NCBI GenBank assembly: GCA_903928055.1
Contig: CAIYPG010000046.1
Location: forward strand, 2,639 to 66,638
Direction of reading: 5' to 3'
Source: an uncultured beta proteobacterium
GTDB lineage: Bacteria; Pseudomonadota; Gammaproteobacteria; Burkholderiales; SG8-39
DNA: 64,000 bases
In this document: positions 3,363-61,477 of the stretch, one piece after another
Layout of the letters: the number at the start of each line of letters is the position of its first letter
How positions within the stretch are numbered: position 1 is the stretch's first letter
Made by a program: the position numbers and the translations under genes
The notes under the pieces: model-generated
Databases searched by the model: none
What the model saw: only the letters and a program-made list of their open reading frames with translations
Told to the model about the DNA's origin: nothing

Positions 3363-4403
3363 ATGAGTGCCAATGCTGATGTTGTCCGCAAGGATGCTTC
3401 CGGCATGCATCCCGACAGGCTTCCCGATTTTCGCAGCCTGGGCGTCATGCTGCGCATCCTGCTCGGCGTGAATATCGCGCTGGTCTTCGCCGCGGCGGTG
3501 CGCGCACAGACGCTGATGCTGATGCCGAACGCCGTCGTGGAGTTGAGCGCCTGGGTCGAGCCGGTGCTGCTCACCACGGTCGTGCTGCTGTATGCCGCCG
3601 CGCGGCCGCTGCTGCGCCTGAGCTACCTCGCTGGTGCGGCGTGCGTGGTCGTCGTTGCCGTGCTGGTAACCGCTGGCTATTCGCTTGCGATCCGGGGCAC
3701 CGGCATACCGATGTTCGAAAGCGAAGGGCACTGGACGCTGCATGCCGCCTTCGCAGCGTTTGCCGCGTGGGGCATGCTGGGCTACTTCCGTCTGCGCGAA
3801 CGCGCCTTCTCGCCGGCACTGGCGGAAGCGCGGCTGCAGGCATTGCAGGCGCGCATCCGTCCCCACTTCCTGTTCAACAGCCTTAATGCGGTGTTGTCGC
3901 TGGTGCGCTCCGATCCGCGCCGTGCCGAGGGCGCGCTCGAGGACATGGCCGAACTGTTTCGCACGCTCATGGCCGACAACCGCACGCTGTCCACACTGGG
4001 TGAAGAGGTGGCGCTGACCCGCCAGTACCTGAACATCGAGCACCTGCGTCTGGGCGAGCGTCTCACGGTGGAGTGGAAGATCGATCCGCGTGCCGAATCC
4101 GTGCAGGTGCCGCCGCTGATGCTGCAGCCGCTGGTCGAGAACGCCGTGTACCACGGCGTTGAGCCGGGCATGGGTCCGGGCACCATCCAGATCGCAGCTG
4201 CGCTGCAGGGCGATGAGCTGCGCCTGGTGCTCTCCAATCCCTACCATCCGGAACACCAGCATCGCCAGGGCAACCGCATGGCGCTGGCGAACATCGGCGA
4301 GCGCCTGCGGCTGCATTTTGATGTCGAGGCGAAGATCGAGACAAAAATCACCGGTGGCCGCTTCGAGATCCGGGTCACCGTTCCCAACCGGAAAATGCCC
4401 TGA
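3363..4403 (+). CDS. algZ: LytS/AlgZ(FimS)-type sensor histidine kinase
   Basis: Multi-TM N-terminus. His_kinase motif PHFLFNSLNAV and HATPase region LQPLVENAVYHG. Lies upstream of a LytTR regulator in the same argH-algZ-algR-hemC order as Pseudomonas. Confidence 0.75.
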   Translation: MSANADVVRKDASGMHPDRLPDFRSLGVMLRILLGVNIALVFAAAVRAQTLMLMPNAVVELSAWVEPVLLTTVVLLYAAARPLLRLSYLAGAACVVVVAVLVTAGYSLAIRGTGIPMFESEGHWTLHAAFAAFAAWGMLGYFRLRERAFSPALAEARLQALQARIRPHFLFNSLNAVLSLVRSDPRRAEGALEDMAELFRTLMADNRTLSTLGEEVALTRQYLNIEHLRLGERLTVEWKIDPRAESVQVPPLMLQPLVENAVYHGVEPGMGPGTIQIAAALQGDELRLVLSNPYHPEHQHRQGNRMALANIGERLRLHFDVEAKIETKITGGRFEIRVTVPNRKMP

Positions 4404-4414
4404 TACGTGATTCC

Positions 4415-5173
4415 ATGACCCTGCGCATCCTCATCGTCGATGACGAGCAGCCGGCCCGCAACCGGTTGCGTGAACTGCTCGATGACTGCCGCCTCGAAGT
4501 GCCCCATGAAATCGTCGGTGAAGCGGCCAACGGCATGGAGGCACTGGCGCTGCTGCCCGAGGCGCGGCCGGACGTGGCGCTGGTGGACATCAACATGCCG
4601 GGCATGAGCGGCATTGAGCTCGCCGGCCACCTGCAGGTGCTGGAGCATCCGCCCGCAGTGATCTTCGCCACCGCGCACAACCAGTATGCCGTCGAGGCCT
4701 TTGAAGTGAATGCCATCGACTACCTGCTGAAGCCGGTGCGCGCGGTGCGCCTTGCCGCGGCCTTGAAGAAGATCGGCGGCGCGCGGGCGCCGGCCGGCCT
4801 GTCGCGAGAAACGCTGTCCCGCCTCGATCCGCAGCCGCGGCGTCATTTCGCGATTGCCGAGCGCGGCAAGGTGAAGCTGGTACCGGTCGCGGACGTGCTG
4901 TTCCTCAAGGCCGACCTGAAATACGTATTGGTGCGCACGCACGAAGCCGAGCACCTGATCGAGGAGCCGCTCAGCCGCCTCGAGGAGGAGTTCGGCGGGC
5001 TGTTCATCCGTATCCACCGCAGTTGCCTCGTGGCCCGGCACCTGATCCGTGGTTTTGAGCGCGTGACCGGCGAGGACGGGGAGGGATGGGCAGTGGTGCT
5101 GGAGGGCTGGCCGGAGAAGCTGCCTGTCAGCCGGAGGCAGTGGCCGGGGGTTAAGGCGATAGTTGGGGTTTGA
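4415..5173 (+). CDS. algR: LytTR-family response regulator
   Basis: Receiver domain (ILIVDDE..DVALVDINMPG) plus C-terminal LytTR DNA-binding domain. Paired with the upstream kinase. Confidence 0.85.
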   Translation: MTLRILIVDDEQPARNRLRELLDDCRLEVPHEIVGEAANGMEALALLPEARPDVALVDINMPGMSGIELAGHLQVLEHPPAVIFATAHNQYAVEAFEVNAIDYLLKPVRAVRLAAALKKIGGARAPAGLSRETLSRLDPQPRRHFAIAERGKVKLVPVADVLFLKADLKYVLVRTHEAEHLIEEPLSRLEEEFGGLFIRIHRSCLVARHLIRGFERVTGEDGEGWAVVLEGWPEKLPVSRRQWPGVKAIVGV

Positions 5174-5174
5174 T

Positions 5175-5665
5175 AGAAGCTTTTTCGGCTTCGCCGAGTG
5201 ACTTTCTTTGCTTCGCCAAAGAAAGTCACCAAAGAAAGGCGACCCTACGGTGCCGGTTCCGGCGCTTGCGCGCCGGAACCCCCTGCGATGCTCGCAGTCT
5301 TCGGCGGCTGCGGAACTCGCTGTCTTCGCTTCGCTCGCAGCTCAGACAGTCCTCGCCGACGGCCCCTCAGACTGCTGCGCTTCTCGGCGTCACCAAAGGG
5401 GCACAGCCACAGCAAACCAGTGGTTTGCTTTTGACTTTCGCTCTTGGGGGCCCTTGATGCGTCGCCGAGCAGCGCAGATGAGGCCAGGGTTTCGGCGAGT
5501 TCCGCAGCCGCTGGCCTCAGCGAGCAGCACAGGGTAGTCGCCGCAGGCGACCGGCGCATGGGGGGGGCTTTTCTCTGCTTATTCTCTTTTGCACAAGCAA
5601 AAGAGAATAAGTCGCCGAGAGGCGAAACAACTCTTCAAAGAAAAGGTAAAGCCGAAGGGGTTTGA
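5175..5665. repeat. mosaic of nested palindromes / inverted ~100-bp repeat units in the algR-hemC spacer
   Basis: Perfect hairpins at 5198-5209/5218-5229, 5255-5265/5270-5280, 5411-5418/5422-5429, 5537-5542/5546-5551 and 5578-5592/5597-5611. Perfect 17-bp long-range inverted repeat at 5304-5320/5495-5511. Confidence 0.75.
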
Positions 5666-6729: not shown

Positions 6730-7518
6730 ATGAAGGCACCGGCTGCCTCGGACGCCTTGGCCGGCAGGGCCATCCTTGTCACCCGTCCCGTTGCGCGTGC
6801 TGCGCGCCTGGCCGCGCTGGTGCGCGAGGCCGGTGGCGATCCGGTGCTGTTCCCGACGCTTGAAATAGTATCAATTTCAAAAAATAGTGATTCATCCACG
6901 CAAATCGATGACATGAATGTTATTGATGCGGACCTGCTGGTCTTTGTCAGCCCGACGGCCGTGGAGCATGCCGTCGCGGTGTTCGATGCGCTGCTGCCGG
7001 AGTCCGTGAAAGTCGCCGCCGTCGGACATGCCACGGCGCGCGCGTTGCAGGCGCGCGGGGTGGCCAGGGTCATTGCACCCGAAGATGGTGCCGACAGCGA
7101 AGCGCTGGCTGCATTACCGGACATGCAGCAGCTTGCCGGCCGTCGCGTCCTCATCGTGCGCGGCGAGGGCGGTCGCCCCTGGCTGGCCGATACGCTGCGC
7201 GCGCGCGGCGCCACGGTTGAATACCTGGAGTGTTACCGGCGCGTCCGTCCGGACGTCGATGCCGCGCCGCTGGCGGCACGCGTCATTGCGGGTGACATTG
7301 CCGCGGCCACCATCACCTCGCGCGAAGCCCTCGACAACCTGCTGGCCATGCTGCCCGCGGAAGCCCGTGCAGCGGTCCTCGCCACGCCGATGTTCGTCGT
7401 TCATCCGCGCCTTGCCGGGCATGCGCGCGCCCTTGGCGCACGTGAAGTGGTCGTCACCGGCGCGGGCGATGATGCAATGGTTCGGGAATTGCAGGCCTTT
7501 TTTGCTAAAGTAGCGTAA
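6730..7518 (+). CDS. hemD: uroporphyrinogen-III synthase
   Basis: 262 aa, HEM4-like (ILVTRP.., LLVFVSPTAV), sits between hemC and hemX. Contains an anomalous AT-rich patch at 6861-6928. Confidence 0.88.
   Translation: MKAPAASDALAGRAILVTRPVARAARLAALVREAGGDPVLFPTLEIVSISKNSDSSTQIDDMNVIDADLLVFVSPTAVEHAVAVFDALLPESVKVAAVGHATARALQARGVARVIAPEDGADSEALAALPDMQQLAGRRVLIVRGEGGRPWLADTLRARGATVEYLECYRRVRPDVDAAPLAARVIAGDIAAATITSREALDNLLAMLPAEARAAVLATPMFVVHPRLAGHARALGAREVVVTGAGDDAMVRELQAFFAKVA
6861..6928 (-). repeat. AT-rich patch inside hemD, probable degenerate copy (F) of the 63-bp element family
   Basis: The reverse complement shares with copy D the 10-mer TGAAATTGAT and a TGAT box (TGATACTATTT) at one end, and ATCA..TAA..TTCATGT at the other. 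It is 3-4 nt longer. Confidence 0.45.
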
Positions 7519-7555: not shown

Positions 7556-8632
7556 ATGAACGAAACCTCCCCCTCCCCTCAGCCAGAGCTTCCGCAGCCC
7601 GAGTCGACGCCGCCTGTTTCGCGGCGCGGACTGCTGCTGGCATTGCGGGAATTCCTGCGCAATCCCTGGGCGATTGTGGTGCTTCTGCTGGTGCTGCTGC
7701 TCGCCTGGCAGTGGTACGACGAGCACAGCCGCATGTCGGCATTGCGCGAAGAACTGGCCACCCGCCTGCGCGACAGCGATGCCGACAGCCGTGATGCCCG
7801 CCTGGTGGCACGCCAGGCCCAGGAGGCGGTGCGCGAGGCACAGACCAGGCTCGGCCAGCTCGATTCCAAACTGGCCGAATCCCAGAACCAGCAGGTGGCG
7901 CTCGAGGCGTTGTACCAGGAGCTGTCGCGCAATCGCGACGAGTGGGCGCTGGCTGAAGTGGACCAGATCCTCACCATCGCTTCGCAGCAACTGCAGTTGG
8001 CCGGCAATGTGCAGGCCGCCGTGGCGGCGCTGCAGACCGCCGACCAGCGCCTGGCGCGCGCCGACCGGCCGCAGTTCATTCCGCTGCGCAAGGTCATCGC
8101 GCGCGACCTGGATCGATTGAAAGTCACCCCCAACCCCGACATCGCCGGCCTGGCCCTCAAGATCGACCAGCTGATCACGGCGGTAGACACCTTGCCGCTG
8201 GCAGGCGATGAGCGCATTGCCGCCTCCGCGCGCACGCCGGCCGCCGCGCTGCCCGACGGCTTCTGGGCACGCCTGGGTGCCGAGGTCTGGAACGAATTCA
8301 AGTCGCTGATCCGCATCCAGGTCACCGACCGGCCGGAGCCGGGCCTGATCGCGCCCAGCCAGGTGTTCTTCCTGCGCGAGAACCTCAAGCTGCGCCTCCT
8401 GAATGCGCGCCTTGCGCTCCTGTCGCACGATGAATCCACGTTCCGCGAGGACGTGAAGACCGCATCGGCATGGCTGGCGAACTGGTTCGACACGCGTTCC
8501 CGCGCCACGCAGGCGGCGCAGACCACGCTGCGCCAGATGTCCGCGTCCGCGATCCAGATCGAATTGCCGACCATTGGCGACAGCCTGAACGCGGTGCGCA
8601 ACTACAAGGTTGCCCGCGACAGGGCGAGATAG
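7556..8632 (+). CDS. hemX: HemX-like membrane protein
   Basis: N-terminal TM followed by a long coiled-coil region. Conserved position after hemD. Confidence 0.8.
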   Translation: MNETSPSPQPELPQPESTPPVSRRGLLLALREFLRNPWAIVVLLLVLLLAWQWYDEHSRMSALREELATRLRDSDADSRDARLVARQAQEAVREAQTRLGQLDSKLAESQNQQVALEALYQELSRNRDEWALAEVDQILTIASQQLQLAGNVQAAVAALQTADQRLARADRPQFIPLRKVIARDLDRLKVTPNPDIAGLALKIDQLITAVDTLPLAGDERIAASARTPAAALPDGFWARLGAEVWNEFKSLIRIQVTDRPEPGLIAPSQVFFLRENLKLRLLNARLALLSHDESTFREDVKTASAWLANWFDTRSRATQAAQTTLRQMSASAIQIELPTIGDSLNAVRNYKVARDRAR

Positions 8633-8640
8633 GTTCCGGA

Positions 8641-9840
8641 GTGAGAGGCCTCTTCTGGGTGGTGGGCGTGTTCGGGCTGGCGGTGGCCCTGTCGCTCGGG
8701 TTGCGCGCCATTGATGGTTACGCGCTGTTCGTTTTCCCGCCCTACCGCGTCGAGATCTCGCTCATTTTGCTGGTGATTCTGCTGTTCGCCGGCTATGCAC
8801 TGGCCTACGGCCTCACACGCATCGTTTCACACACCCTGGAGCTGCCCTCCTATGTGCGCGCTTTCCGCGAACGCAAGCGGCGCGACCGTGCCGAGGACGC
8901 GCTGCATGGCGCGCTGCAGGCCTGGTTCGAGGGCCGCTTCTCGCGCGCCGAGAAACTTGCCACGAAAGCCTGGGACCTGGGCGCGGAACGCGGCGCCGTC
9001 AGCCTGGTTGCGGCACGTGCGGCGCAGCGCGTGCGCGACATCGAGCGGCGCGAGTTGTGGCTGGCGCGCGCCGAGGAAGCCGGTGGCGCCGCCTGGAAGC
9101 TGGCGACGCAGGCCACGCGCGGTGAACTGCTGGTCGATGATCGCAAGTACGCCGATGCGCGTCGCGTGCTGCGCGGCCTGCATGACAGCGGCCCCATCCA
9201 CATCGCCACGCTGCTGTTGCTGCTGCGTGCCGAGCAGGAGCTGGGTGACTGGGAGGAAGTGATCCGCATTGCGCGCCTGCTGGAGAAGCGCTCCGGCCTG
9301 CCGGCCGCCGCGCTCGAAGGCATACTGATGCGGGCGCGCATTGCCGTGCTGGACAAAAAGTCCCACGATCCCAAGTCGCTCGCCGAATACTGGAAGGGCG
9401 TTCCCCAGGATGAACGGCGCGGTTCCAAACTTGCCGCCGCCGCCGCGCGCGCCTACATGCAACTGGGCGACTGCCATACCGCGCACAGCATCATCGAGGA
9501 TGCGCTGGGCACGGCCTGGACCGCCGAACTGGTGCTGCTCTACGGCGAATGCCTTGATGATGACGCGCTGTCGCGCATCGAACGCGCCGAGCGCTGGCTG
9601 AACCAGCGCCCGCGCGACTGGCCGCTGCTGCTCACGCTGGGGCGCCTGTGTGTGCAGCGCGAGTTGTGGGGCAAGGCGCAGAGCTACCTCGAGGCCAGCC
9701 TGTCGGTGCAACCCACGCGCACCGCACACATTGCGCTGGCCCGCCTGTTCGACCGTGTCGGCCGCATCCACGATGCGAACCGGCATTTCCGCGCTGCGGC
9801 CGATGCCGGCCTCGCGGCGGGTGCCACCGGCGAAGCCTGA
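8641..9840 (+). CDS. hemY: HemY-like TPR membrane protein
   Basis: GTG at 8641 preceded by GGAG, just after the hemX stop. N-terminus VRGLFWVVGVFGLAVAL has two TMs and is followed by TPR-like repeats. The 8470 start in the ORF track overlaps hemX. Confidence 0.8.
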   Translation: MRGLFWVVGVFGLAVALSLGLRAIDGYALFVFPPYRVEISLILLVILLFAGYALAYGLTRIVSHTLELPSYVRAFRERKRRDRAEDALHGALQAWFEGRFSRAEKLATKAWDLGAERGAVSLVAARAAQRVRDIERRELWLARAEEAGGAAWKLATQATRGELLVDDRKYADARRVLRGLHDSGPIHIATLLLLLRAEQELGDWEEVIRIARLLEKRSGLPAAALEGILMRARIAVLDKKSHDPKSLAEYWKGVPQDERRGSKLAAAAARAYMQLGDCHTAHSIIEDALGTAWTAELVLLYGECLDDDALSRIERAERWLNQRPRDWPLLLTLGRLCVQRELWGKAQSYLEASLSVQPTRTAHIALARLFDRVGRIHDANRHFRAAADAGLAAGATGEA

Positions 9841-19707: not shown

Positions 19708-20205
19708 TCAGGGGGTTCCGGTTGCTGCAGCCTTCGTCATGGCCATGACCGGCAGCGCCGTCTTGTCCACCACCTTGCGCAGCACGAAGCTCGAATGCAC
19801 GCCGGTCACCCCTTCGATGCGCGTGATCTTGTCGAGCAGCAGTTCCTGGTAGGCATCCATGTCGCGCACGATCACCTTCAACTGGTAGTCGGCGTCCTGC
19901 CCTGTGACCAGCAGGCACTCCAGCACTTCCGGCAGTTCACCCACCCGGGCCTCGAAGTTCGCAAAGCGCTCCGGCGTATGGCGGTCCATGGAAATGTAGA
20001 TCAGCGCCATCAGCGTCAGCCCGAGTGCGCGCGCCGACACCAGCGTGCGATACCCCGTTACCACGCCAGCCTCCTCCAGCGCCTTCACCCGCCGGAGGCA
20101 GGGTGAGGGCGACAGGCCGATGCGGTCGGCGAGGTCCTGGTTGCTGATGCGGGCATCTTCCTGCAGCACTTCCAGGATGTGCCTGTCGTAGCGGTCAAGT
20201 TGCAC
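19708..20205 (-). CDS. Lrp/AsnC family transcriptional regulator
   Basis: LDRYDRHILEVLQEDARISNQDLADRIGLSPSPCLRRVKALEEAGV HTH plus RAM domain. GTG start at 20205. Confidence 0.9.
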   Translation of the reverse strand: MQLDRYDRHILEVLQEDARISNQDLADRIGLSPSPCLRRVKALEEAGVVTGYRTLVSARALGLTLMALIYISMDRHTPERFANFEARVGELPEVLECLLVTGQDADYQLKVIVRDMDAYQELLLDKITRIEGVTGVHSSFVLRKVVDKTALPVMAMTKAAATGTP

Positions 20206-20232
20206 GATATTGCCAGTAAATAACGATAGAGC

Positions 20233-20287
20233 AATTATTATAGGAAATAATCGTAAATTTAAGCAATATTATTGCGTAAATATATCA
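20233..20287 (-). repeat. shortened (55 bp) degenerate copy (E) of the AT-rich element family
   Basis: The minus strand reads TGATATATTT..TTGCTT..CTATAATAATT. Left box, GCTT core and right box are in family order, but about 8 nt are missing. Confidence 0.4.
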
Positions 20288-20520
20288 GTCGAGGCCATAT
20301 AACGCAATCGCCTGCCGGGCCCCTTGGCCTACACTGGCTGCTCCTGTTACCCACAGGTTGTTTCAGGCCCGGCGCGGGTCAGCCGCTGTCCCACAAGGAC
20401 GGGCGGCACGATCCGAGGCCGGCGCATCCCAAACGGATGCGTGCAGAGTTTGAGTGATCCACGAATCAGCCCATAGCAATGGCAATGACGACCGCAATGA
20501 CGACCGGCAAGGAGCCGCCC

Positions 20521-22424: not shown

Positions 22425-23363
22425 ATGACCTGGCTCTGGATCCCCATCACGCTCATCGCTGCAGTCCTCCAGACTGCGCGCAATGCCGCCCAGCGCGGCC
22501 TCATCAAGACTGCCGGCACACTCGGCGCCACACTGGTGCGCTTCCTCTACGGACTGCCGTTTGCCGTGGTGTGGCTGGCGATCCTGCATTACCAGCATCC
22601 GCCGGTTGTGAATGCCGATGCGCCAGACGTGTCCGCAGCCTTCCTGATGTGGGTGTCCATGGGCGGCGTGTCGCAGATCATCGCCACGGCTTTCCTGCTG
22701 CTTGCCATGCAGACCCGCTCCTTTGCCGTCGCCACCGCCTATGCCAAGACCGAGGTGCTGCAGGTGGCGCTGTTCAGCTTCGTGCTGCTCGGCGAGGCGG
22801 TGAGCACTGGTGGCATGGTGGCCATATTGCTTTCGGTGGTGGGCGTGATGCTGCTGTCGGTGAAGCCGGACGCGCAGATGGGCGATGGGGGTGCAGGCAA
22901 GCGCTGGTGGTCCGAATGGCTGTCCCCTGCCGCCTTCTACGGCATCGTGGCCGGCGGCCTGTTCGGCCTCTCGGCGGTGGGCTACCGCGGCGCGGCCCTT
23001 CAGCATCCCGACTGGACGCCGTTCTACTCCGGGGCATTCAACCTGGTGTGGGCACAGGCGATACAGACCGTGTTGCTCGGCGGATGGCTGCTGGTGAAGA
23101 ACCGCCAGGCGCTGATGATGGTGATGCGCGAATGGAAGCTGTCGCTGGCTGCGGGCTTCCTCGGCGCCACCGCCTCCGCGGGCTGGTTCACCTCGTTCGC
23201 CATGCACAACGCCGCCGAAGTGCGCGCGCTCAGCCTCGTCGAAGTGCTGTTCGGCTTCTTCATCTCGCACCAGTGGTACAAGGAGAAAACCGAGAAGCGT
23301 GAGCTGCTGGGGATGGCGCTGCTGTTGCTGGGGCTGGCGGTGCTGGTGACTTCGGTCAGTTGA
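22425..23363 (+). CDS. DMT/EamA-like permease
   Basis: 312 aa, about ten TM helices, duplicated EamA-like halves. Confidence 0.7.
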   Translation: MTWLWIPITLIAAVLQTARNAAQRGLIKTAGTLGATLVRFLYGLPFAVVWLAILHYQHPPVVNADAPDVSAAFLMWVSMGGVSQIIATAFLLLAMQTRSFAVATAYAKTEVLQVALFSFVLLGEAVSTGGMVAILLSVVGVMLLSVKPDAQMGDGGAGKRWWSEWLSPAAFYGIVAGGLFGLSAVGYRGAALQHPDWTPFYSGAFNLVWAQAIQTVLLGGWLLVKNRQALMMVMREWKLSLAAGFLGATASAGWFTSFAMHNAAEVRALSLVEVLFGFFISHQWYKEKTEKRELLGMALLLLGLAVLVTSVS

Positions 23364-23376
23364 CCTCATCTTTTAA

Positions 23377-23439
23377 TGATCATAATTGTCTTGTAAAGTT
23401 GCTTTAATAATTAATAAATCTGTAAAATTGATTATAATG
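23377..23439 (+). repeat. AT-rich 63-bp element, copy A
   Basis: TGATCATAATTGTCTTGTAAAGTTGCTTTAATAATTAATAAATCTGTAAAATTGATTATAATG. Ungapped identity is 44/63 to copy D and 41/63 to copy B. It ends 2 nt before the methyltransferase ATG. Confidence 0.8.
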
Positions 23440-23441
23440 AT

Positions 23442-24296
23442 ATGACCGAATCACCGATCCGGAATGTTTCCGACACTGCCTTCTGGATTGCGCACCATCG
23501 CGCAGAAGAAAGCGACCGGCCCGATGCCCTGTTCCATGACCCGCTTGCCCGGCGGCTGGCGGGTGAGCGCGGGCAGGTGATCGGGAGGGATTTGCCGGCG
23601 CAGCGCTTCGTTGCCTGGAACGTATCGGTCCGCACCTGCATCATCGACGATTTCATCCGCGAATCGATTGCGCACGGGGTGGACACGGTGCTCAACCTCG
23701 GCGCCGGCCTCGATGCGCGGCCCTGGCGGATGGAACTGCCGCCGACGCTCCGCTGGGTGGAAGTGGACCATCCGCACCTCATGGCCTACAAGGCCGAGCA
23801 ACTCGCCGGGAAGAAGGCGCACTGCCAAGTGGAGCGCATCAGCCTGGACCTTGCTGATCGCGAGGCACGCCGCAGCATGCTGGCCGGCGTGAATGCGCGC
23901 GCCGGAAAGATGCTGCTGATCACCGAGGGCGTGCTGCCCTATCTCAGCGTGGAGGAAGCCGCCGCACTGGCCGACGACCTCCGAACCCTTGATCGAGCCA
24001 GCGGCTGGATCGTGGACTACATCTCGGCACTGGCGATGGAATACCGCGAACGCGGCGGCATGGCGAACCGCATGCAGAACGCGCCATTCAAATTCAAGCC
24101 GCAGGACTGGTTCGAATTCTTCCGCGGCCATGGATGGCAATGCAACGAGATGCGCTACATGCCCGTGGAAGGCGAACGCCTCGGACGGCCCTTCCCGATT
24201 CCCGTGCCGATGAAGTTGATGATGCGCCTGGCTTCGCCGGAGAAAAAGAAGGCGCTTCGGGAGTTGATGGGGTACGCGTTGATGGGGCCGTGCTGA
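23442..24296 (+). CDS. class I SAM-dependent methyltransferase (LCM / TIGR00027-like)
   Basis: SDTAFWIAHHRAEE.., LNLGAGLDARPWR SAM-binding motif, 284 aa. Confidence 0.8.
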   Translation: MTESPIRNVSDTAFWIAHHRAEESDRPDALFHDPLARRLAGERGQVIGRDLPAQRFVAWNVSVRTCIIDDFIRESIAHGVDTVLNLGAGLDARPWRMELPPTLRWVEVDHPHLMAYKAEQLAGKKAHCQVERISLDLADREARRSMLAGVNARAGKMLLITEGVLPYLSVEEAAALADDLRTLDRASGWIVDYISALAMEYRERGGMANRMQNAPFKFKPQDWFEFFRGHGWQCNEMRYMPVEGERLGRPFPIPVPMKLMMRLASPEKKKALRELMGYALMGPC

Positions 24297-24313
24297 TCTA
24301 AGTAACGAGCTGG

Positions 24314-25489
24314 CTACCAGGCATTCTCAAGAACCTGTTCCAGTTCGCCCGCATTCTGTACCCGCCGCGGATTGTCGCGAACGAACCAGTCTTCCATCGA
24401 GATGGCGGCCAGATGCGGAAGGGATTCGCGTGTGACACCGATGTCCCGCAGGCGCCCCGGTGTGCCGAGCGACTCAAAAATTGATCGCATGGCCTCGACC
24501 ACGACATCGACAGGCGCCCTTTGGTCGGCATTCATTCCGAAGGCATTCACCAGCTTCTGGAGTCCTTCTGCCGCTGCCACCTCGTTGAACCGAACCACAT
24601 GCGGCAGCACGATGGCATTGGCCAGGCCGTTGTCGACATGAAACCGGGCGCTGATGGCATGTCCCAGCGGAAGGGCAATTCCCGCGCCGGTGTAGTCCGT
24701 GCCGTGGCCGCAGAGCAGCGATGCGAACATGAGGTCGGCGCGGATTGCCGGATCGTCGCCATCCCCTTCCACCAGGCGCTGCCGCAGCAGCCGCGCGGCA
24801 TGCATCAGCAGCGCATCGGAAAACGGATCGCCCGAGCGTGACATGAGCCCTTCCATCGCCATGGCCAGCGTATTGAGACCGGCGCTGACAACCAGCTTCC
24901 TTGGCGGTGTTGCGAGCAGTTCCGGATGGATGAACACCGCCTGCGCGCGGGTCTTGGGATCGAATAGCGCGAGGCGCCTGCCATCAACGGGGTCGAGCAC
25001 TGCGCTCCCCGCCTTCAGCGTGGCGGTCGTCGGTGTCGTGGGAATCACGAACTGCGGGAGCTTCGGTGCCAGCAACTTGGGGCTTCTGAGCCTGCCACTC
25101 TCGTCGCGCGATGTGCAGAGCTGCCGTGCGCCACCCTTTTCCGCGAGCAGGATGCCCGCCGCACGGGCCGTCACAATCGCCGATCCCCCGCCCAGGGCGA
25201 TGATGCAATCCGCGTTGAGGCGCTGCAGTTCGGCCGCTGCCGCCTCCACGGCGGGCAGCGGACTGTGCGCCTTGACGCCGGCATGCACGCCTGCGCACCT
25301 GTCGCCCGCTGCGACGCGAACACGGTCGGCCATGCCGTCCCGCGCCAGCGACGAACCGCAGAAGAGCACGGCACGATGGCTGTCGATGCGTTCGAGTTCC
25401 CTGCCCAGCATCGCCAGGCTGTCAGGCCCGTGGAAGAGGCGTAGCGCAGGCACGATGTGCCGGAAAGATTCGATGCTGCCGATGCTCAC
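24314..25489 (-). CDS. iron-containing alcohol dehydrogenase family protein
   Basis: 391 aa, GGGSAIVTARA glycine motif and conserved His-rich C-terminal half. Confidence 0.85.
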   Translation of the reverse strand: MSIGSIESFRHIVPALRLFHGPDSLAMLGRELERIDSHRAVLFCGSSLARDGMADRVRVAAGDRCAGVHAGVKAHSPLPAVEAAAAELQRLNADCIIALGGGSAIVTARAAGILLAEKGGARQLCTSRDESGRLRSPKLLAPKLPQFVIPTTPTTATLKAGSAVLDPVDGRRLALFDPKTRAQAVFIHPELLATPPRKLVVSAGLNTLAMAMEGLMSRSGDPFSDALLMHAARLLRQRLVEGDGDDPAIRADLMFASLLCGHGTDYTGAGIALPLGHAISARFHVDNGLANAIVLPHVVRFNEVAAAEGLQKLVNAFGMNADQRAPVDVVVEAMRSIFESLGTPGRLRDIGVTRESLPHLAAISMEDWFVRDNPRRVQNAGELEQVLENAW

Positions 25490-25553
25490 TTGCGGACTCC
25501 AGCGAGAAATGGATCGTAATGACGATCACGATGGAATTGCTTTCTGGACACTA

Positions 25554-25934
25554 TCAGTCCCCGAATTGCGCCGCCAGGTCTTCGTAATTTTCCTGGCGGA
25601 ATCGTGGCGTGCAAATCGCCAGAAACACCAGCTTCCCCTCACCAACATTGGCAATCCGCTGTCGGCACATCGCCGGGATCAGCACCACATCCCCGGCTTT
25701 GACTTCGTGCGGCGCAAGGTCGCCAATCTCGACGCGGCCGCGTCCTTCCAGGATCACATAGCGCTCACCGGTGCCCTTGAGGCGGTGCCAGCGCGTGGTG
25801 ACGCCCGGCGCGACGCTGGCGCGGGCGATGGAGCAGTCCGGGTCGTCCGGGGTGTTGGAGAGTTCGAGGATGTCGCAGCGCTCTTCGGTGGCGAAGGTCT
25901 GCGCAGGGTCGGGGGCAAGGATGGCGGGGTTCAT
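25554..25934 (-). CDS. cupin domain protein
   Basis: ATG at 25934 avoids overlap with the MFS gene. Cupin motifs WHRLKGTGERYVILEG and GDVVLIP. Confidence 0.75.
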   Translation of the reverse strand: MNPAILAPDPAQTFATEERCDILELSNTPDDPDCSIARASVAPGVTTRWHRLKGTGERYVILEGRGRVEIGDLAPHEVKAGDVVLIPAMCRQRIANVGEGKLVFLAICTPRFRQENYEDLAAQFGD

Positions 25935-25959
25935 GGCCGCCAGCATGCCAGCAGCGCGG

Positions 25960-27126
25960 CTATTTGTCGCCGGGCTGGTCCGGTGTTGCCTCTGCTGTTC
26001 TCTTCCGCGTGGCAAGTGCGCCGCCGCCCATCAGCACCGCGCTGATCATGAACACGGTGAACAGTCCGGCGGCCGAGGCGATCGCGCCGAACACTGGCGG
26101 GCTGATGACGCGCGCCAGGTTGTTCACGGTCTGCCGCAGGCCGATCGCCTGCCCCGAGCGGCCTTCGGGCGCGCTGTTGAACAGCATCATCATGGTGATG
26201 GGCATGCCGCAGCCCATGCCGAAACCGAAGCAGAACGAAATCGCACAAAGTATCAGGATGTTCCCGGACAGGGGCAGCAGCAGGAAGGCGACCGCTGCTG
26301 CGAGAAAGGTGCCACCCAACAGCCGCTCCTGGCCGATGCGCGCGAGCAGCCAGGGCAGCACGAGGCGCACGACGCATGAGGCCGTCGCAAAACTGGCCAG
26401 CACCGTGCCGATGGCCGATGCCGACAGCGGAATGCTGTGGCCGTAGATCGGCATGTAGAACATGTACAGGTCCTGCCCGATCTGGATCAGCGTCGTGGTG
26501 AGGATGGCGGCCATGACGGCCTTGTCCGAAATCAGTTCCTTCAGGGAATTCTGTGCCGCGATGGCGTGCTTGCCCCCGCCGCCGGGCAGTTGCTGGCCGC
26601 GGAGCGCAACCATCGTAAATGCCATGAAGAACAGGCCCGCGGCGCACAGGCTGGCGATGGCGTGGCCGGCGTGGTCGATGGCAAATCCGGCGATTAGGGG
26701 GCCGAGGATGTTGGAGCCGGAGCCCATCAGGCTGGCGTTGCTGAAATTGCGTGCGCGTTCCTCGGGTTTGCTCACGAGGCCCACGATGTTCTGCACCAGC
26801 ACATTGCAGAACACGAAGGCCATGCCGGAGAGCGCACCGCCCACATAAAGCGCCGGCAGCTTCGGGAACAACCAGGGCACGAGCATGCCGACTGAGCCGG
26901 CGAACATTCCGTAGAGCAGCAGCTTGCGCGGGCCGGTGCGGTCGGCCCATACGCCGATCGGCCAGGACAGCACGAGGGGGAATGCAAAGAACGTGGCGGC
27001 GAGCAGGCCGATCTCGGCCGGCTGCGCGCCGAGTTCCAGTGCATACAGCGACAGCAGCACCCGCGCAGCAGTGACCGCGCTGTAGGTGATCAGCGAAAAG
27101 GCAAAGGTCAGGTAAAGCGGGGACAC
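25960..27126 (-). CDS. MFS transporter
   Basis: 388 aa, 12 predicted TM helices, GVWADRTGPRK loop motif. Confidence 0.85.
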   Translation of the reverse strand: MSPLYLTFAFSLITYSAVTAARVLLSLYALELGAQPAEIGLLAATFFAFPLVLSWPIGVWADRTGPRKLLLYGMFAGSVGMLVPWLFPKLPALYVGGALSGMAFVFCNVLVQNIVGLVSKPEERARNFSNASLMGSGSNILGPLIAGFAIDHAGHAIASLCAAGLFFMAFTMVALRGQQLPGGGGKHAIAAQNSLKELISDKAVMAAILTTTLIQIGQDLYMFYMPIYGHSIPLSASAIGTVLASFATASCVVRLVLPWLLARIGQERLLGGTFLAAAVAFLLLPLSGNILILCAISFCFGFGMGCGMPITMMMLFNSAPEGRSGQAIGLRQTVNNLARVISPPVFGAIASAAGLFTVFMISAVLMGGGALATRKRTAEATPDQPGDK

Positions 27127-27141
27127 CGGTGAATCTCCTGC

Positions 27142-28119
27142 CTATTCCGCCAGCTTGATTCCCGCGCCGTCCACCACCTTCTTCCAGCGCACGACTTCCG
27201 AGGAAAAGTACTGTTTGAACTGTACCGGCGTGTTGCCCACGGCGAGGCTGCCCTGGTTGTCGAGCTCGGCCACGATGGGCGGCATCTTCGCCACCCGGAC
27301 AAGCGCATCAGTCACCTTGTTCACGATCGCAGGCGGCGTGCCGCCGGGCGCGAAGAAGCCCAGCCAGTTGGCGTAGTCGAATTCCGGCAGGTTGTGCTCG
27401 GCCACCGTGGGCACGTCGGGCATGTGCTTGGAGCGCTCGCTGCCCAGCATGGCCAGCGGCCGGATCTTGCCGGACTTCACCAGAGGCAGCGTCGCGATCA
27501 GCGTGCCCGATGAAACATCCACGCGGCCCGCCATCAGTTCGGTCATCAGCGGCCCGGTGCCCTTGAAAGGCACAAAGGTCACCTTCGTATTGGTGAGCGA
27601 ATGCATCCACTCGCCAACGAGGTGGCTGATGTCGCCGACGCCGGCGGTGCCGTAGTTGATCCTGCCGGGATTGGCTTTCGCGTAGGCGAGGTACTCGGCG
27701 TAGGTCTTGAACGGCGCGATGGTGCTCGCCACCAGCACCGAGGAACGCTTGCTCATCTGCGTGATTGGCACGAGGTCCTTCAGCACGTCGAAGTTGAGGT
27801 CGGTGTAGAACGCCGGGAACACGGCCAGGGCCGCGGACGTGGACAGCAGCGTGTAGCCATCCGGCCTGGCCTTCGCCACATAGCCGCTGCCGACCGCAGT
27901 GCCGCCGCCGACCTTGTACTCGATGACCAGGGGCTGTCCGATGATCTCTGAGGCCTTGGTGGTGTACAAGCGGCTCTCCAGGTCAACCGGTCCGCCGGCT
28001 GCGAAAGCCACGATGACCGTGATCGGCTTGGTGGGATAGGTCTGGGCCTCTGCAATGCCAGTCGCCATGGTTAAGATGGCCATTGATGCCGCCATGCACA
28101 TCTGGCGTGAATTCAACAT
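27142..28119 (-). CDS. Bug-family (TctC-like) tripartite tricarboxylate transporter substrate-binding protein
   Basis: Signal peptide followed by YPTKPITVIVAFAAGGPVD, 325 aa. Confidence 0.9.
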   Translation of the reverse strand: MLNSRQMCMAASMAILTMATGIAEAQTYPTKPITVIVAFAAGGPVDLESRLYTTKASEIIGQPLVIEYKVGGGTAVGSGYVAKARPDGYTLLSTSAALAVFPAFYTDLNFDVLKDLVPITQMSKRSSVLVASTIAPFKTYAEYLAYAKANPGRINYGTAGVGDISHLVGEWMHSLTNTKVTFVPFKGTGPLMTELMAGRVDVSSGTLIATLPLVKSGKIRPLAMLGSERSKHMPDVPTVAEHNLPEFDYANWLGFFAPGGTPPAIVNKVTDALVRVAKMPPIVAELDNQGSLAVGNTPVQFKQYFSSEVVRWKKVVDGAGIKLAE

Positions 28120-28168
28120 GGATTTTCCCTTATCGGATTGCTGTTTTCGTTGTTTTTGTGGTGCTGGT

Positions 28169-28935
28169 TCAGGTCTTCAGTCGGTAGCCGGTCTTGAAGA
28201 TCCATGCCACGACCCCGAGGAAGGCGGCGAGGAAGGCCAGCGTCATCCCCAGGCTCACGGCGATGCTCACGTCCGATGAGCCATGGAAGCTCCAGCGGAA
28301 GCCGCTGATCAGGTACACCACCGGATTGAACAGCGACACCGTCTGCCAGAACGGCGGCAACATCTTGATCGAATAGAAGCTCCCGCCGAGGAAGGTGAGC
28401 GGCGTGATCACCAGCAGCGGAATGATCTGCAGTTTCTCGAAGCCGTCGGCCCAGATGCCGATGATGAAGCCGAGCAGGCTGAAGGTCACCGAGGTCAGCA
28501 CCAGGAAGCAGATCATCCAGAACGGGTGCTCGATCTCCAGCGGCACGATCATTGCCGCGGTGGCGAGGATCACCAGCCCGAGGATGATGGACTTCGAGGC
28601 CGCGGCCCCGACATAGGCGATGACGATCTCCAGATACGAGATCGGCGCGGACAGCAGCTCGTAGATCGTGCCGGTGAACTTCGGGAAGTAGATGCCGAAC
28701 GAGGCATTGGCGATGCTCTGCGTCAGCAGCGACAGCATGATCAGGCCGGGCACGATGAAGGCGCCGTAGCTGATGCCGTTCACCTCCTGCATGCGCGGAC
28801 CGATGGCCGCGCCGAACACCACGAAATACAGCGCTGTCGACAGCACCGGCGAGATCAGGCTCTGCATCAGCGTGCGCTTGAAGCGCGCCATCTCGAAAGT
28901 GTAAATGGCGCGGGTGCCGTGGAAATTGAAGTTTT

Positions 28936-28939
<4 letters not shown>
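28169..28939 (-). CDS. yadH: ABC-2 type transporter permease (YadH-like)
   Basis: Collinear similarity to E. coli YadH as recalled (FIVPGLIM.., [12 protein letters not shown]...LPPFWQ..S..NP.VY.ISGFR). Confidence 0.8.
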
Positions 28940-29913
<974 letters not shown>

Positions 29914-30098
29914 GCCGTCATGATAACGGATTGGGTATCCCTTACCGCTGAATGACCCTTCCGCACAGAGGGTGTCATCGAAAGACTTCGGGCTCCGCCG
30001 GGGCGGGCCCTGCACAGACAGCTTGGCGACAGTGATTGCCGCGCTCAGGCGGGGATAATGGCGAACCGGAATCTTTCGGCGTTTGAATTATCAATCGC

Positions 30099-31427
30099 AT
30101 GCAGACCGGCAACGGCATGCAACAGCAGGCTCAACGCATGAATCAGGAATCCCCTCCACACGCCAAAACGCACGCCACGGACCATGTGCCGCTGCTGAAG
30201 AAGCTCGGCCCCGGACTGATCACGGGCGCCGCGGACGATGATCCCAGTGGCATTGCGACGTATTCGCAGGCCGGTGCGCAGTTCGGCTACGGGCTGCTGT
30301 GGTCGACGCTGCTCACTACACCGCTGATGATCGGCATCCAGATTGTCAGCGCGCGCCTCGGTCGGGTTTCGGGGCACGGCCTCGCGGCCAACATCCGCGC
30401 GCAGTTTCCGCGACCGCTGCTGTATTTCATCGTTTCATTGTTGCTGATCGCGAACACGATCAATATTGCCGCGGATCTGGGCGCCATGGGCGATGCGCTG
30501 GCGCTGATCGTCGGTGGCCGCAGCGCAATCTACATCGTGTTCTTTGCGCTGGTGTCGCTGACGCTCCAGGTCTTCATTCCGTTCCCGCGCTATGCACCGC
30601 TCCTGAAGTGGCTGACGCTGGCGTTGTTCGCCTATGTAGGTACGGTGCTGGTGGTGCATGTGCCGCTCGAGGAGATGTTGAGCGGTGCGCTGCTGCCGAA
30701 CCTGTCCTTCCAGAGCAGCAATGTGGGCATGCTGGTGGCGGTGTTCGGCACCACCATCAGCCCGTATCTGTTCTTCTGGCAGGCATCGCAGGAGGTCGAG
30801 GAACAGCGTGCCACCCCCGGGGATGAACCGCTGCGCGAGGCTCCGGAACAGGCGCGCATTCATTTGCAGCGCATCAAGGTCGACACCTACATCGGGATGA
30901 TCTTTTCCAACCTGATCGCCTTCTGCATCATGCTGACCACGGCTGTGACGCTGCATGGCGCGGGGGTCGTCAATATCGACAGCGCGGCAGAGGCGGCGAC
31001 GGCATTGCGGCCGCTTGCGGGGGATTTCGCCTTCCTGCTGTTTGCCGCGGGGATCGTCGGTACCGGCCTGCTGGCGGTTCCCGTGCTGGCCGGTTCGGCG
31101 GCCTACGCCGTGGCCGAGAGCTTCAGCTGGCGCATCGGCCTGGGGTTGCCGTTGACCGAGGCGCGCGGCTTTTATTCGATTCTCACCATTGCCACGCTGC
31201 TTGGCGTGGTGATCGACCTGACCGGCGTTGATTCCATCAAGATGCTGCTGTGGGCCGCGATGATCAACGGCGTGGTGTCGGTGCCCATCATGGCGGTGAT
31301 GATGCTGCTCTCCGCCCGGCCAGAGGTGATGGGCCGCTTCGTGGTGAGCGGGCGGCTGCGTTTCCTGGGGTGGCTGGCCACGGGTGTCATGGCTGCCGCG
31401 GTCGTGGCGATGTTTGTGGTGTCCTGA
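30099..31427 (+). CDS. NRAMP-family divalent metal transporter
   Basis: GPGLITGAADDDPSGIATYSQAG motif, 11-12 TM helices, 442 aa. Confidence 0.85.
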   Translation: MQTGNGMQQQAQRMNQESPPHAKTHATDHVPLLKKLGPGLITGAADDDPSGIATYSQAGAQFGYGLLWSTLLTTPLMIGIQIVSARLGRVSGHGLAANIRAQFPRPLLYFIVSLLLIANTINIAADLGAMGDALALIVGGRSAIYIVFFALVSLTLQVFIPFPRYAPLLKWLTLALFAYVGTVLVVHVPLEEMLSGALLPNLSFQSSNVGMLVAVFGTTISPYLFFWQASQEVEEQRATPGDEPLREAPEQARIHLQRIKVDTYIGMIFSNLIAFCIMLTTAVTLHGAGVVNIDSAAEAATALRPLAGDFAFLLFAAGIVGTGLLAVPVLAGSAAYAVAESFSWRIGLGLPLTEARGFYSILTIATLLGVVIDLTGVDSIKMLLWAAMINGVVSVPIMAVMMLLSARPEVMGRFVVSGRLRFLGWLATGVMAAAVVAMFVVS

Positions 31428-31476
31428 CGCCGCTGAAGCAGAGCGGTTTCCCCATGCCGGATATTCCGGACTGTGT

Positions 31477-31539
31477 TGATTTTAATTATTCGGTGAACAC
31501 GCTTCTGAAAACAGATGATTATTGTTTTTGATAATAATT
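31477..31539 (+). repeat. AT-rich 63-bp element, copy C
   Basis: TGATTTTAATTATTC-37 nt-TGATAATAATT. Same 15/37/11 architecture as A and B, and the right module is identical to B. Lies at the convergent NRAMP/cgs junction. Confidence 0.7.
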
Positions 31540-31556
31540 ACGGAAACTCCTGACGC

Positions 31557-40559: not shown

Positions 40560-40809
40560 CGGAAGTGGTGGGTACGGGAAGCGCGCAGGTCAGACTCGCC
40601 TTGTGCGCGCATGCCCGATCAGCCGCGCAGGCGAACGCGACGGCGGGAGCATTCATCCTGGCGGGATCACGAAGGCGCATCCGACCCGGCGACCCGGCGG
40701 CCCGGCGCCTTCCTGAACGTCTAGGGTCTTGTTTCCGGCGTGTGCAGTCTGTGCGCCGACGCACATAACCCGGACGGGTCATGTGCTATTGGAGGTTGTG
40801 CTTTGCGGG

Positions 40810-41544
40810 CTAGGTGCCCGTGCCGCCGCCCGTGGCCCGCGCGAGGCGTGCCGCGTTGTCCTTCGTATCGTAGATGTTGACGGCGGCCTTGCCTTTGGCC
40901 GCCTCGGCCATGCGCTCGCGGATCTCGTGCGCCATGCGCTTGTTCCGCTGCACGGCGGGCCTGGCCTCCATGGCTTCGAACCAGCGCATGAAATTCGGGA
41001 ACCCGGCCTTGTCGATGCCCCGGTCCGCATGGCCGCGCGTCCAGGGATAGACCGCCATGTCGGCGATGGTGTATTGGTCGCAGCCCAGCCATGCGCTTTC
41101 GCGCAGGCGGTTCTCCAGCACGCGGTAGATGCGCAGTGCCTCGTTGTTGTAACGGTCGCGCGCGTACTGAAGTTCGGGGCCCTTGGCCTGGTTGTTGAAA
41201 TGCCCGGCCTGGCCGAACATCGGGCCGACATGCGCCATCTGGAAGATCAGCCACTGCAGCGTGTCGTAGCGCTTGCGCGGGTCCTTGGGCAGGAACTTGC
41301 CGGTCTTCTCCGCGAGGTAGATCAGGATGGCGCCCGATTCCATCATGGTGTATCGGCCCCCGGGCCCCTCGGTGTCGACGATGGCCGGAATCTTGTTGTT
41401 CGGGCTGAGCTTCAGGTAATCCGGCGTGAACTGCTCACCGATGCTGATGTCGACATCGAAGTGCTTCCATTCGAGGCCGGTCTCCTCGAGCATGATCATG
41501 ACCTTCTGGCCGTTCGGCGTGGGTTTCGAGTGCAGTTCGATCAT
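40810..41544 (-). CDS. glutathione S-transferase (Nu-class, YfcG/YghU-like)
   Basis: TPNGQKV.IMLEE.GL, NNKIPAIVD, ESGAILIYLAEKTGKF, QMAHVGPMFGQ. Confidence 0.85.
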   Translation of the reverse strand: MIELHSKPTPNGQKVMIMLEETGLEWKHFDVDISIGEQFTPDYLKLSPNNKIPAIVDTEGPGGRYTMMESGAILIYLAEKTGKFLPKDPRKRYDTLQWLIFQMAHVGPMFGQAGHFNNQAKGPELQYARDRYNNEALRIYRVLENRLRESAWLGCDQYTIADMAVYPWTRGHADRGIDKAGFPNFMRWFEAMEARPAVQRNKRMAHEIRERMAEAAKGKAAVNIYDTKDNAARLARATGGGTGT

Positions 41545-41595
41545 GTCGTTCTCCTGTGTCGGTTCTGGACGGAGGGGTGCGGTCAGCCACGGGCA

Positions 41596-42573: not shown

Positions 42574-42775
42574 GTCTCCCTCCTTGGGTAGCCCGGATGG
42601 GGTTCTTGTTTTGATTGTCTGGCGATCCGGAATCCGTGAATCCTACACTGCTGCGCGACGGTCTACTTTGGGAGCCGCGGATTTCCGGCGCGGCAGAATC
42701 GCGGCAATCCAGGCGCTGCGTGCACAAGGGATGGATCGGAAGTACGTCCCGTGCTGCCTTCCCGGAATTAAATCA

Positions 42776-42838
42776 TGATCATAATCATTGTTTAAAACTG
42801 CTTTAATAGAGGAGTAAATATTACTACTGATAATAATT
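42776..42838 (+). repeat. AT-rich 63-bp element, copy B
   Basis: TGATCATAATCATTGTTTAAAACTGCTTTAATAGAGGAGTAAATATTACTACTGATAATAATT. Flanked by a perfect 9-bp inverted repeat at 42759-42767/42839-42847. Confidence 0.8.
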
Positions 42839-42957
42839 TTCCGGGAATGACCTGCTGCTGCAGGGCGGGGAGTATCGTACGAGGGCCAGCCCAAAGGCAG
42901 CGCATCCTCGACGCAGGGGCGGACCGTACTGGCCGGAGCAGGTCCTGATTCAGGAAA

Positions 42958-61432: not shown

Positions 61433-61477
61433 AATTTTATCTATTTTCCAATAGGATTTACATGAAAATTATGATCA
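61415..61477 (-). repeat. AT-rich 63-bp element, copy D
   Basis: The minus strand reads TGATCATAATTTTCATGTAAATCCTATTGGAAAATAGATAAAATTATGAAATTGATCATTTTG. It starts inside the glyS stop codon and contains the gmhB ATG and its first 6 codons. Confidence 0.75.

Follow-up and report, generated by a model that had tools for sequence, protein, structure and literature searches.

The hemD gene, encoding uroporphyrinogen-III synthase, on a stretch of 64,000 nucleotides (nt) from an uncultured freshwater Burkholderiales bacterium (the window in what follows, i.e. the whole stretch of DNA that was analysed) contains a patch of very AT-rich DNA at positions 6861-6928 that is real and old, and that is neither a recent nor a net insertion. 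The patch is inherited throughout a clade of relatives, is constrained at the level of the nucleotides, including the synonymous sites, and shares a box motif and the spacing between the boxes with a family of intergenic repeats. The explanation that we favour, and to which we would give about an even chance, is that the patch represents an ancient in-frame copy of a bipartite AT-rich DNA element under selection, most likely a two-site protein-docking platform. The phenomenon belongs to a known kind, that of a dispersed repeat or DNA motif within coding sequence; unusual are its long conservation within an essential gene and the strict design of two boxes at 52 nt. The features at the hemD locus are:

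6730-7518, plus strand: hemD, intact, encoding a protein of 262 amino acids (aa) (Pfam HEM4, E=7e-45; relatives in the PDB: 3MW8, 4ES6 and 3RE1).
6864-6926, minus strand: the AT-rich element proper, 63 nt (box1, 41-nt spacer and box2), GC 0.286, extending from HemD codon E45 (third base) to D66 (second base) and in register with the intergenic copies and with 15 relatives.
6916-6926, minus strand: box1, TCAATAACATT, degenerate in this genome; the plus strand reads AAT GTT ATT GA, i.e. N63-V64-I65-D66.
6875-6915, no strand assigned: spacer of 41 nt, AT-rich, with amino acids that are hypervariable among the relatives (as judged from the codon alignment, the GC content at third codon positions (GC3) and the predicted local distance difference test (pLDDT) scores of an AlphaFold2 (AF2) model).
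6864-6874, minus strand: box2, TTGATACTATT, identified by pattern match; the plus strand reads (GA)A ATA GTA TCA A, i.e. E45-I46-V47-S48-(I49).
6860-6888, plus strand: a weak sigma-70-like match within the patch (TTGAAA-17-AATAGT), one found with 0.1 expected.

The GC content of the patch is 0.294 versus 0.695 for the remainder of hemD, and of all 68-nt segments of the 64 kb only 0.3% are as AT-rich. These segments fall in six places: the hemD patch, the divergent region between an Lrp-family gene and leuA, and four intergenic islands; the hemD patch is the sole one that lies wholly within a gene. A preliminary description of this DNA had noted the patch (quoting a string that starts at 6860, one base ahead of the start it named) and had stated that the hemD frame stays open, which it does: the peptide is encoded in frame as LEI-VSISKNSDSSTQIDDMNVID-AD-LLVFVSPTAV, although the residues AD were left out in that description. 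Likewise, the 10-mer TGAAATTGAT that was said to be shared with one of the islands (copy D) is indeed found at 6870-6879 on the minus strand, with a second occurrence at 61422-61431. The patch is not an artefact, since the exact HemD protein of the window was recovered from 18 contigs of independent assemblies and Logan contigs from three lake-metagenome runs (two studies) cover the patch without gaps, which settles the matter of read support that had been raised as a check. One of the lake runs (X3) shows a single synonymous change, T6924C (ATT to ATC, Ile), by which box1 goes from TCAATAACATT to TCGATAACATT and comes nearer to the consensus of the clade.

The age of the patch follows from a codon-aware alignment of 43 hemD genes: 16 patch carriers and 27 GC-rich genes (26 clear outgroups and the relative L003). 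The carriers comprise the window and sequences of freshwater Burkholderiales from GTDB metagenome-assembled genomes and from ENA, JGI and Logan contigs. Their HemD proteins are 57-79% identical to that of the window and the AT-rich patch is found at exactly the same 20 codons in all 16. The GC content of the patch ranges between 0.22 and 0.48 in the carriers, against 0.65-0.74 for the remaining gene, and the shift concerns both GC3 (0.10-0.60 versus 0.66-0.86 elsewhere in the gene) and the GC content at codon positions 1 and 2 (0.23-0.53 versus about 0.65 elsewhere); the 27 non-carriers have a GC content of 0.52-0.77 at the position of the patch. A neighbour-joining tree for which the patch was masked recovered the carriers as nearly monophyletic, with the GC-rich L003 and L012 nested inside or as sister, and a scan of a metagenome collection returned almost only outgroups. 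The segment of L003 has the same length as the patch and is 63% GC; in most non-carrier HemDs the segment is two codons shorter and the HemD homologues are alike in overall length. Because the carriers are nearly monophyletic, have the patch at the same codons and show no net gain in length, the patch must have a single origin, in which a segment that was already there was converted or replaced, and it has been passed on vertically since. As to the in-frame capture envisaged in the preliminary description, a recent event is incompatible with a patch that is ancestral to the HemD clade down to about 57% identity, and a net insertion, which had been left open, is contradicted by the equal length in L003 and the difference of just 2 codons with more distant HemDs.

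Within the clade the ends and the middle of the patch behave differently. The ends are conserved at the nucleotide level (left GAA ATA TTA TCA ATT, right AAT RTW ATC), whereas the peptides encoded by the middle 12-14 codons are unalignable between sub-clades, with the AT-richness kept (codon alignment). Rare codons are retained at the ends: I46 is encoded by ATA in 14 of the 16 carriers (5% of the Ile codons elsewhere in these genes), Leu at residue 47 by TTA in nine out of ten cases (share elsewhere 1.7%) and S48 by TCA in 13/16 (4%). N63 is encoded by AAT in all 16 (45% elsewhere), and I65, at which the motif needs GAT, by ATC in 13/14, ATC being the common codon (69% elsewhere); as amino acids, N63 and I65 hardly vary within the clade. 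Of the 96 amino-acid columns that are conserved outside the patch, no more than 11% have a majority codon ending in A or T. On the minus strand the hemD consensus consists of two direct 11-nt boxes, TTGATnAYATT, with starts exactly 52 nt apart. This spacing (6864/6916 in the window) is present in all 15 clade relatives, in which both boxes are better matches than those of the window (box1: T[TC]GATnAYATT; box2: TTGATAATATT in most relatives).

The intergenic AT-rich islands display the layout nTGATnATAAT, 52 nt, nTGATnATAAT, four times in the window and once in the relative L172:

23376-23438, plus strand: intergenic copy 1, ATGATCATAAT and TTGATTATAAT at 52 nt, between an eamA-like gene and an LCM methyltransferase gene.
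31476-31538, plus strand: intergenic copy 2, TTGATTTTAAT and TTGATAATAAT at 52 nt, between the convergent genes Nramp/mntH and a 3000-aa glucan-synthase-like gene.
42775-42837, plus strand: intergenic copy 3, ATGATCATAAT and CTGATAATAAT at 52 nt, between hemF and tctC and antisense to both.
61416-61478, minus strand: copy 4 (= copy D), ATGATCATAAT and TTGATCATTTT at 52 nt; box1 holds the stop codon of glyS and box2 corresponds to codons 3-6 of a gmhB-like gene.
About 3393-3455 in the 20.8-kb locus of L172, minus strand: intergenic copy, GTGATAATAAT and GTGATCATATT at 52 nt, between convergent genes.

Since L172 has an intergenic copy of its own, the two-box family is common to the clade. When one mismatch is allowed, the pattern TTGATNATAWT has 11 matches in the window with 1.07 expected, and 8 of the 11 form four direct-box pairs at exactly 52 nt (23376/23428, 31476/31528 and 42775/42827 on the plus strand and 61478/61426 on the minus strand); box2 of hemD, TTGATACTATT, counts as a match to the pattern as well. 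The hemD patch is thus element-like in the sense proposed earlier, with two direct 11-nt boxes at the same distance as in the intergenic repeats. The 3-4 extra nucleotides that it was thought to contain relative to copy D are explained by the use of the 7-mer TTCATGT as the anchor of the alignment, which shifts the register by 3 nt; with the boxes in register, their spacing is 52 nt in both.

Several properties of the intergenic copies bear on their nature. The copy at 61416-61478 overlaps coding sequence at both ends: the TGA of glyS lies inside box1 (A-TGA-TCA) and box2 coincides with residues 3-6 (L-I-I-L) of the GmhB-like HAD phosphatase that starts with MKLIILDRDGV, a second instance in which genes have incorporated the element. 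The end of the copy at 23376 overlaps the following gene by an ATGA. All five intergenic copies adjoin at least one gene 3' end and none is found in a divergent promoter region. The strand with respect to neighbouring transcription is mixed (two sense, two antisense including hemD, and two between convergent genes) and this, together with the location of two of the five intergenic copies between convergent genes, fits a role at the DNA level that does not depend on orientation. In addition, a six-codon mini open reading frame (mini-ORF; M/L/V-I-I/L-I-x-x-stop) starts from box1 in all 5 intergenic copies, always with the stop at codon 7: ATG ATC ATA ATT GTC TTG TAA; TTG ATT TTA ATT ATT CGG TGA; ATG ATC ATA ATC ATT GTT TAA; ATG ATC ATA ATT TTC ATG TAA; and GTG ATA ATA ATT GTT TCT TGA. 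The start and stop codons vary and the length is constant, which hints at a translated Ile-rich mini-peptide. The copies at 23376 and 42775 and that of L172 furthermore share an interior motif, TGCTTTAA(A)T, at spacer positions 14-22 and in the same register.

The connection between the hemD patch and the intergenic family was evaluated in both directions. A forward matrix, derived from only the eight intergenic boxes of the window with an AT-rich background, was run over the whole loci of the relatives on both strands and at spacings of 30-75 (46 tried). The hemD patch at a spacing of 52 ranked first in 14 of the 15 loci and second in the other, with scores up to 22.5 versus 22.8-26.5 for the true copies; within the 898 kb of fetched loci the pairs with a score of at least 11 at this spacing were 12 hemD patches and one unrelated site. 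The reverse matrix, derived from only the hemD boxes of the relatives, retrieved hemD of the window and then the four intergenic elements, all at 52 nt and within the top six pairs of the window over all spacings. Compared to shuffles (mononucleotide and codon) of the patch segment of 69-81 nt (72 nt in most), the two-box score had p<=0.0014 in 13 relatives and p=0.009 and 0.024 in the window, and the mean column correlation between the hemD and the intergenic box matrices amounted to 0.81 (p=0.0007). A Smith-Waterman comparison of the patch with every AT-rich intergenic region (500 shuffles) yielded a best p of 0.14 (copy D), no better than shuffles, but this test is underpowered because local alignment, even with gaps, is unable to extend across the spacer, which is unrelated. 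With an nhmmer profile of three intergenic copies the patch was the best non-member match in the window (E=2.4), and compared to shuffles the profile score had p=0.016 for the window and p<0.001 for L081 and L001. The likeness between the patch and copy D is therefore weak on the window alone and strong only once the relatives are included. The preliminary description had regarded AT-rich codons that are ancestral among relatives, and that bear no similarity to the intergenic copies, as speaking against its proposal; the ortholog alignment shows that the codons are ancestral and that the similarity is there.

A number of observations weigh against the interpretation of the patch as a selected copy of the intergenic element. 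Box1 is degenerate in the window and the profile match given above is not significant by itself. Position 10 is a T in 32/32 hemD boxes versus an A in 8/10 intergenic boxes, the hemD copies have no mini-ORF, as the corresponding frame continues there, and their spacers lack the interior TGCTTTAAT motif. The relatives are not independent samples, and their common spacing amounts to a single ancestral event that was maintained; moreover, the spacing of 52 nt in hemD is also held by the reading frame and the length of the protein, and Ile-rich coding sequence, on either strand, tends to give GATAAT-like strings, which inflates the likeness somewhat. Further copies were searched for in only about 100 kb of clade sequence. 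Finally, a search of RNA runs came back empty.

Selection on the DNA itself is nevertheless suggested, because all three codon positions are AT-shifted, because the bases of the boxes are fixed irrespective of whether this takes rare or common codons and the order of the codons matters, and because the same layout is found in non-coding DNA in either orientation, including between convergent genes. The position of the patch within HemD is compatible with this. The AF2 model of the protein has a mean pLDDT of 89.7 and a single poorly predicted stretch, which is the patch (residues 53-58 have pLDDT <50 and the block 51-60 has a mean of 50); it comes right behind the strand 45-48, the first inter-domain strand. 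In the HemD structures 3MW8 and 4ES6 the segment that aligns to the patch is an ordinary stretch of similar length. As the patch coincides with the sole low-confidence stretch of the model, its position is one at which the enzyme can accommodate almost any sequence.

The mechanism that we propose would work as follows. The element consists of two direct 11-nt boxes at 52 nt, a distance of about five helical turns that would place both on the same face of the helix, and of 41 nt in between that must be AT-rich and are otherwise free. It is located on the least constrained part of HemD, just behind the first inter-domain strand, where the protein would have been rewritten to what the DNA allows: I/L/S/N with the rarest codons at the boxes and an N/K/S/D/I-rich filler between them. 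Such a design suggests two-site docking for a sequence-specific DNA-binding protein, with a spacer that can be bent or melted. The effect might be a roadblock or regulation of hemCDXY, or a contribution to nucleoid architecture, or it might be the repeat family itself that has a role. Candidate partners could be the LytTR regulator that is encoded just upstream (4415-5173), a Fur-like protein (GATAAT hexamer) or an IHF-like protein (TTGAT core). A bolder version of the proposal, which we consider possible though rather doubtful, holds that we are dealing with an undescribed genome-wide bipartite cis-element that has been functional in hemD since before the clade diversified and that dictates some 20 codons, that the intergenic members encode a translated six-residue Ile-rich peptide (M-I-I-I-x-x), and that the family could be a new intercistronic or regulatory device and not a selfish repeat.

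The main rival to a selected DNA element is a rare-codon cluster that slows the ribosomes at the boundary of the two HemD domains, or that makes translation dependent on rare tRNAs (ATA, TTA); the AT-richness would then be a by-product in a genome of 64% GC and the likeness to the islands a coincidence. The retention of the rarest codons ATA, TTA and TCA at I46/L47/S48, the low GC3 of the patch and its beginning directly behind the first inter-domain strand would all be expected on that account. We hold this explanation to be unlikely. The common ATC is retained at I65, precisely at the point for which the box requires GAT; the shift in composition extends to codon positions 1 and 2, with amino acids that vary freely; the two-box match disappears in codon shuffles in which all rare codons are preserved (the p<=0.0014 given above); and the same boxes, again at 52 nt, are found in non-coding DNA. 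A further reading, to which we likewise give a small chance, is that the element acts in RNA, either as an AU-rich site without structure in the hemCDXY message, at which RNase E, Hfq or a small RNA would land, or as the start of an antisense transcript. The AU-richness with no structure beyond that of shuffles, the one plus-strand sigma-70-like match in the patch of the window, and the conserved six-codon ORF, which implies that at least the intergenic copies are read as RNA, agree with it, whereas the strand relative to transcription differs among the copies, the promoter-like match is confined to the closest relatives and to 1/4 intergenic copies, and Rfam gave no match.

That the patch would be a passive relic, left by a mobile AT-rich repeat (like a miniature inverted-repeat transposable element or a Rickettsia palindromic element (RPE)) that replaced part of hemD in frame and persists without function at a tolerant site of an essential gene, seems improbable to us. 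The family does have multiple copies, another copy overlaps coding ends (the glyS stop and gmhB codons 3-6), and in-frame capture of repeats is known from Rickettsia (PMC10969869). A relic would, however, lose its boxes and drift to the GC content of the genome over a divergence down to 57% identity, whereas even the synonymous sites of the boxes are fixed here and an AT-rich spacer is kept in every sub-clade; in addition there is no net insertion and no palindrome, and no evidence for mobility was obtained. Selection on the protein only, i.e. for a flexible N/K/S/I-rich loop with a conserved N-[VI]-I motif and with AT-richness as a by-product, would agree with the near invariance of N63 and I65 and with the predicted flexibility of the segment; we consider it very improbable, for it is contradicted by the synonymous positions, which are AT-shifted and fixed, and by interior amino acids that are unalignable between sub-clades. 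An artefact of assembly or binning (a chimeric contig) would account for the sharp change in composition and for nothing else, and since independent assemblies have the identical protein on 18 contigs, since the patch is spanned by contigs of three runs (two studies) and since relatives have it at the same codons, its probability is practically negligible.

Various other readings of the sequence were considered. A hairpin or palindrome was ruled out: the DNA fold z-scores of the patch, of three versions from relatives or the other strand, and of the four intergenic copies lie between -1.4 and +0.6, which disagrees with the palindromic nature that the elements were supposed to have. By eye, the boxes are better described as direct repeats (9/11) than as inverted repeats (7/11). 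A consistent sigma-70 promoter (-35 and -10 hexamers 16-18 nt apart) was rejected, the match being limited to the patch of the window and the copy at 23376 and absent from the other three copies; across the relatives, compared by eye, the match is exact in L081 only, near in L001, L163 and L164, and absent in L167. Scans for promoters and terminators gave no consistent result, Rfam 15 produced no match at the gathering score anywhere in the window, and a literature search with the box strings returned just primers and unrelated matches. A -1 slippery heptamer (A_AAA_AAT, 6879-6885) was discarded as it is present in the window only and runs straight into a stop. Consensus sites of Fur, Zur, FNR, IHF (core), DnaA (box), TyrR, ArgR, OxyR and H-NS, compared by eye only, showed half-sites or the wrong spacing; that of FNR, for instance, was TTGA-N7-TCAA, one base too long. 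No target-site duplication was seen in the flanks of the element, the true ends of which are not defined. Contigs from lake metagenomes that were compared with 23100-43000 for the presence or absence of intergenic copies yielded paralogue noise only.

The element can be compared to several known systems. RPEs are about 150 bp in length. They are dispersed repeats that occur in frame inside housekeeping genes, at tolerant parts of the protein, and they are defined by a palindrome, added residues and a conserved peptide (PMC10969869). The parallel with RPEs that had been drawn for the hemD patch holds in so far as the patch is a member of a dispersed family that lies in frame within a housekeeping gene and in a tolerant part of the protein. 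It fails for the defining features: the element in hemD is 63 nt long, is not palindromic, has direct boxes, adds no net residues and is hypervariable in its interior (the 12-14 interior residues are unalignable between sub-clades, so the conserved peptide is lacking too), and it resides in a GC-rich free-living lineage and is conserved across the whole clade. DNA uptake sequences (uptake signal sequences, USS, and DNA uptake sequences, DUS) and other motifs of this sort are selected as DNA inside coding regions, mostly in weakly constrained segments of proteins, and dictate local codons and amino acids. The hemD motif resembles them in being kept within a gene, in a weakly constrained segment, and in dictating the choice of codons and amino acids; it differs in the motif, in being bipartite with a fixed spacing of 52 nt, in its low copy density (5 in 64 kb) and in that there is no sign of competence or uptake bias.

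The mycobacterial interspersed repetitive units (MIRU) are short GC-rich tandem units that separate genes of the same direction, extend into the stop and start codons of these neighbours and contain tiny ORFs. For the intergenic copies only, there is a likeness in the overlap of copy 61416-61478 with the glyS stop and the gmhB start region, in the ATGA overlap of copy 23376 and in the mini-ORFs; unlike MIRU, the copies are single and AT-rich, two of the five lie between convergent genes, and the hemD copy is without a mini-ORF. Control of the TTA/bldA type in Streptomyces and conserved rare-codon clusters at domain boundaries offer the last comparison: the hemD patch likewise is a conserved run of the rarest codons in a GC-rich organism and beside a domain boundary, but it keeps one common codon (ATC), the order of the codons matters, and the same layout occurs in non-coding DNA.

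Some further observations concern hemD and its surroundings. The gene order around hemD is: LytTR response regulator, hemC, hemD, hemX and hemY. Near the 3' end of hemD the codons of F257-F258-A259 (7498-7506), TTT TTT GCT, are the same in 16/16 clade sequences, including the synonymous sites, and this region is among just four columns outside the patch in which an A/T-ending codon is kept in at least 80%; it may belong to the translation-start region of hemX or to another signal. The protein cluster of P0002 (HemD of the closest relative) has three members of 179 aa instead of 260, possibly because the contig or the gene call is interrupted a short way downstream of the AT-rich patch. With its start at 8470, the mechanically derived ORF of hemY (8470-9840) shares about 160 nt with hemX; a start near 8659 (393 aa), as called on identical contigs, is the likelier one. 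Between the LytTR regulator gene and hemC (5170-5660) there is some 600 nt of non-coding DNA with several inverted repeats, at 5200-5232 (GACTTTCTTTG...CAAAGAAAGTC) and 5575-5612 (CTTATTCTCTTTTGC...GCAAAAGAGAATAAG), and with a 40-nt pair (5281-5320 / 5495-5534) that is 80% complementary; these repeats could be a structured RNA or a repeat element. Elsewhere in the window, the most AT-rich region that is not an element (20188-20315) lies between the divergent genes for an Lrp/AsnC-family regulator and leuA. A perfect palindrome, GCAATATTATTGC, is present in this region; a pair of boxes is not, and the region does not resemble the element family. The 3000-aa ORF next to copy 2 (31557-40559, minus strand) has glycosyltransferase-2, glucoamylase-like and GH94 domains, an architecture that is equal to that of the cyclic beta-1,2-glucan synthases (NdvB/ChvB type).

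The patch is a marker for the clade, and it gives reason for caution in annotation and in tests for selection, as a patch of this kind could pass for horizontal transfer or an insertion. If the patch is indeed a maintained copy of the two-box element, it would define a dispersed element that is new for uncultured freshwater Burkholderiales and whose architecture, two boxes at a distance of five helical turns, is simple and can be tested. It would then also constitute a clean natural case in which a non-coding DNA signal has overridden both protein sequence and codon bias in an essential gene over the long term, with some 20 codons dictated by the signal, with sharp edges, and with an internal control in the form of the free spacer between the fixed boxes.

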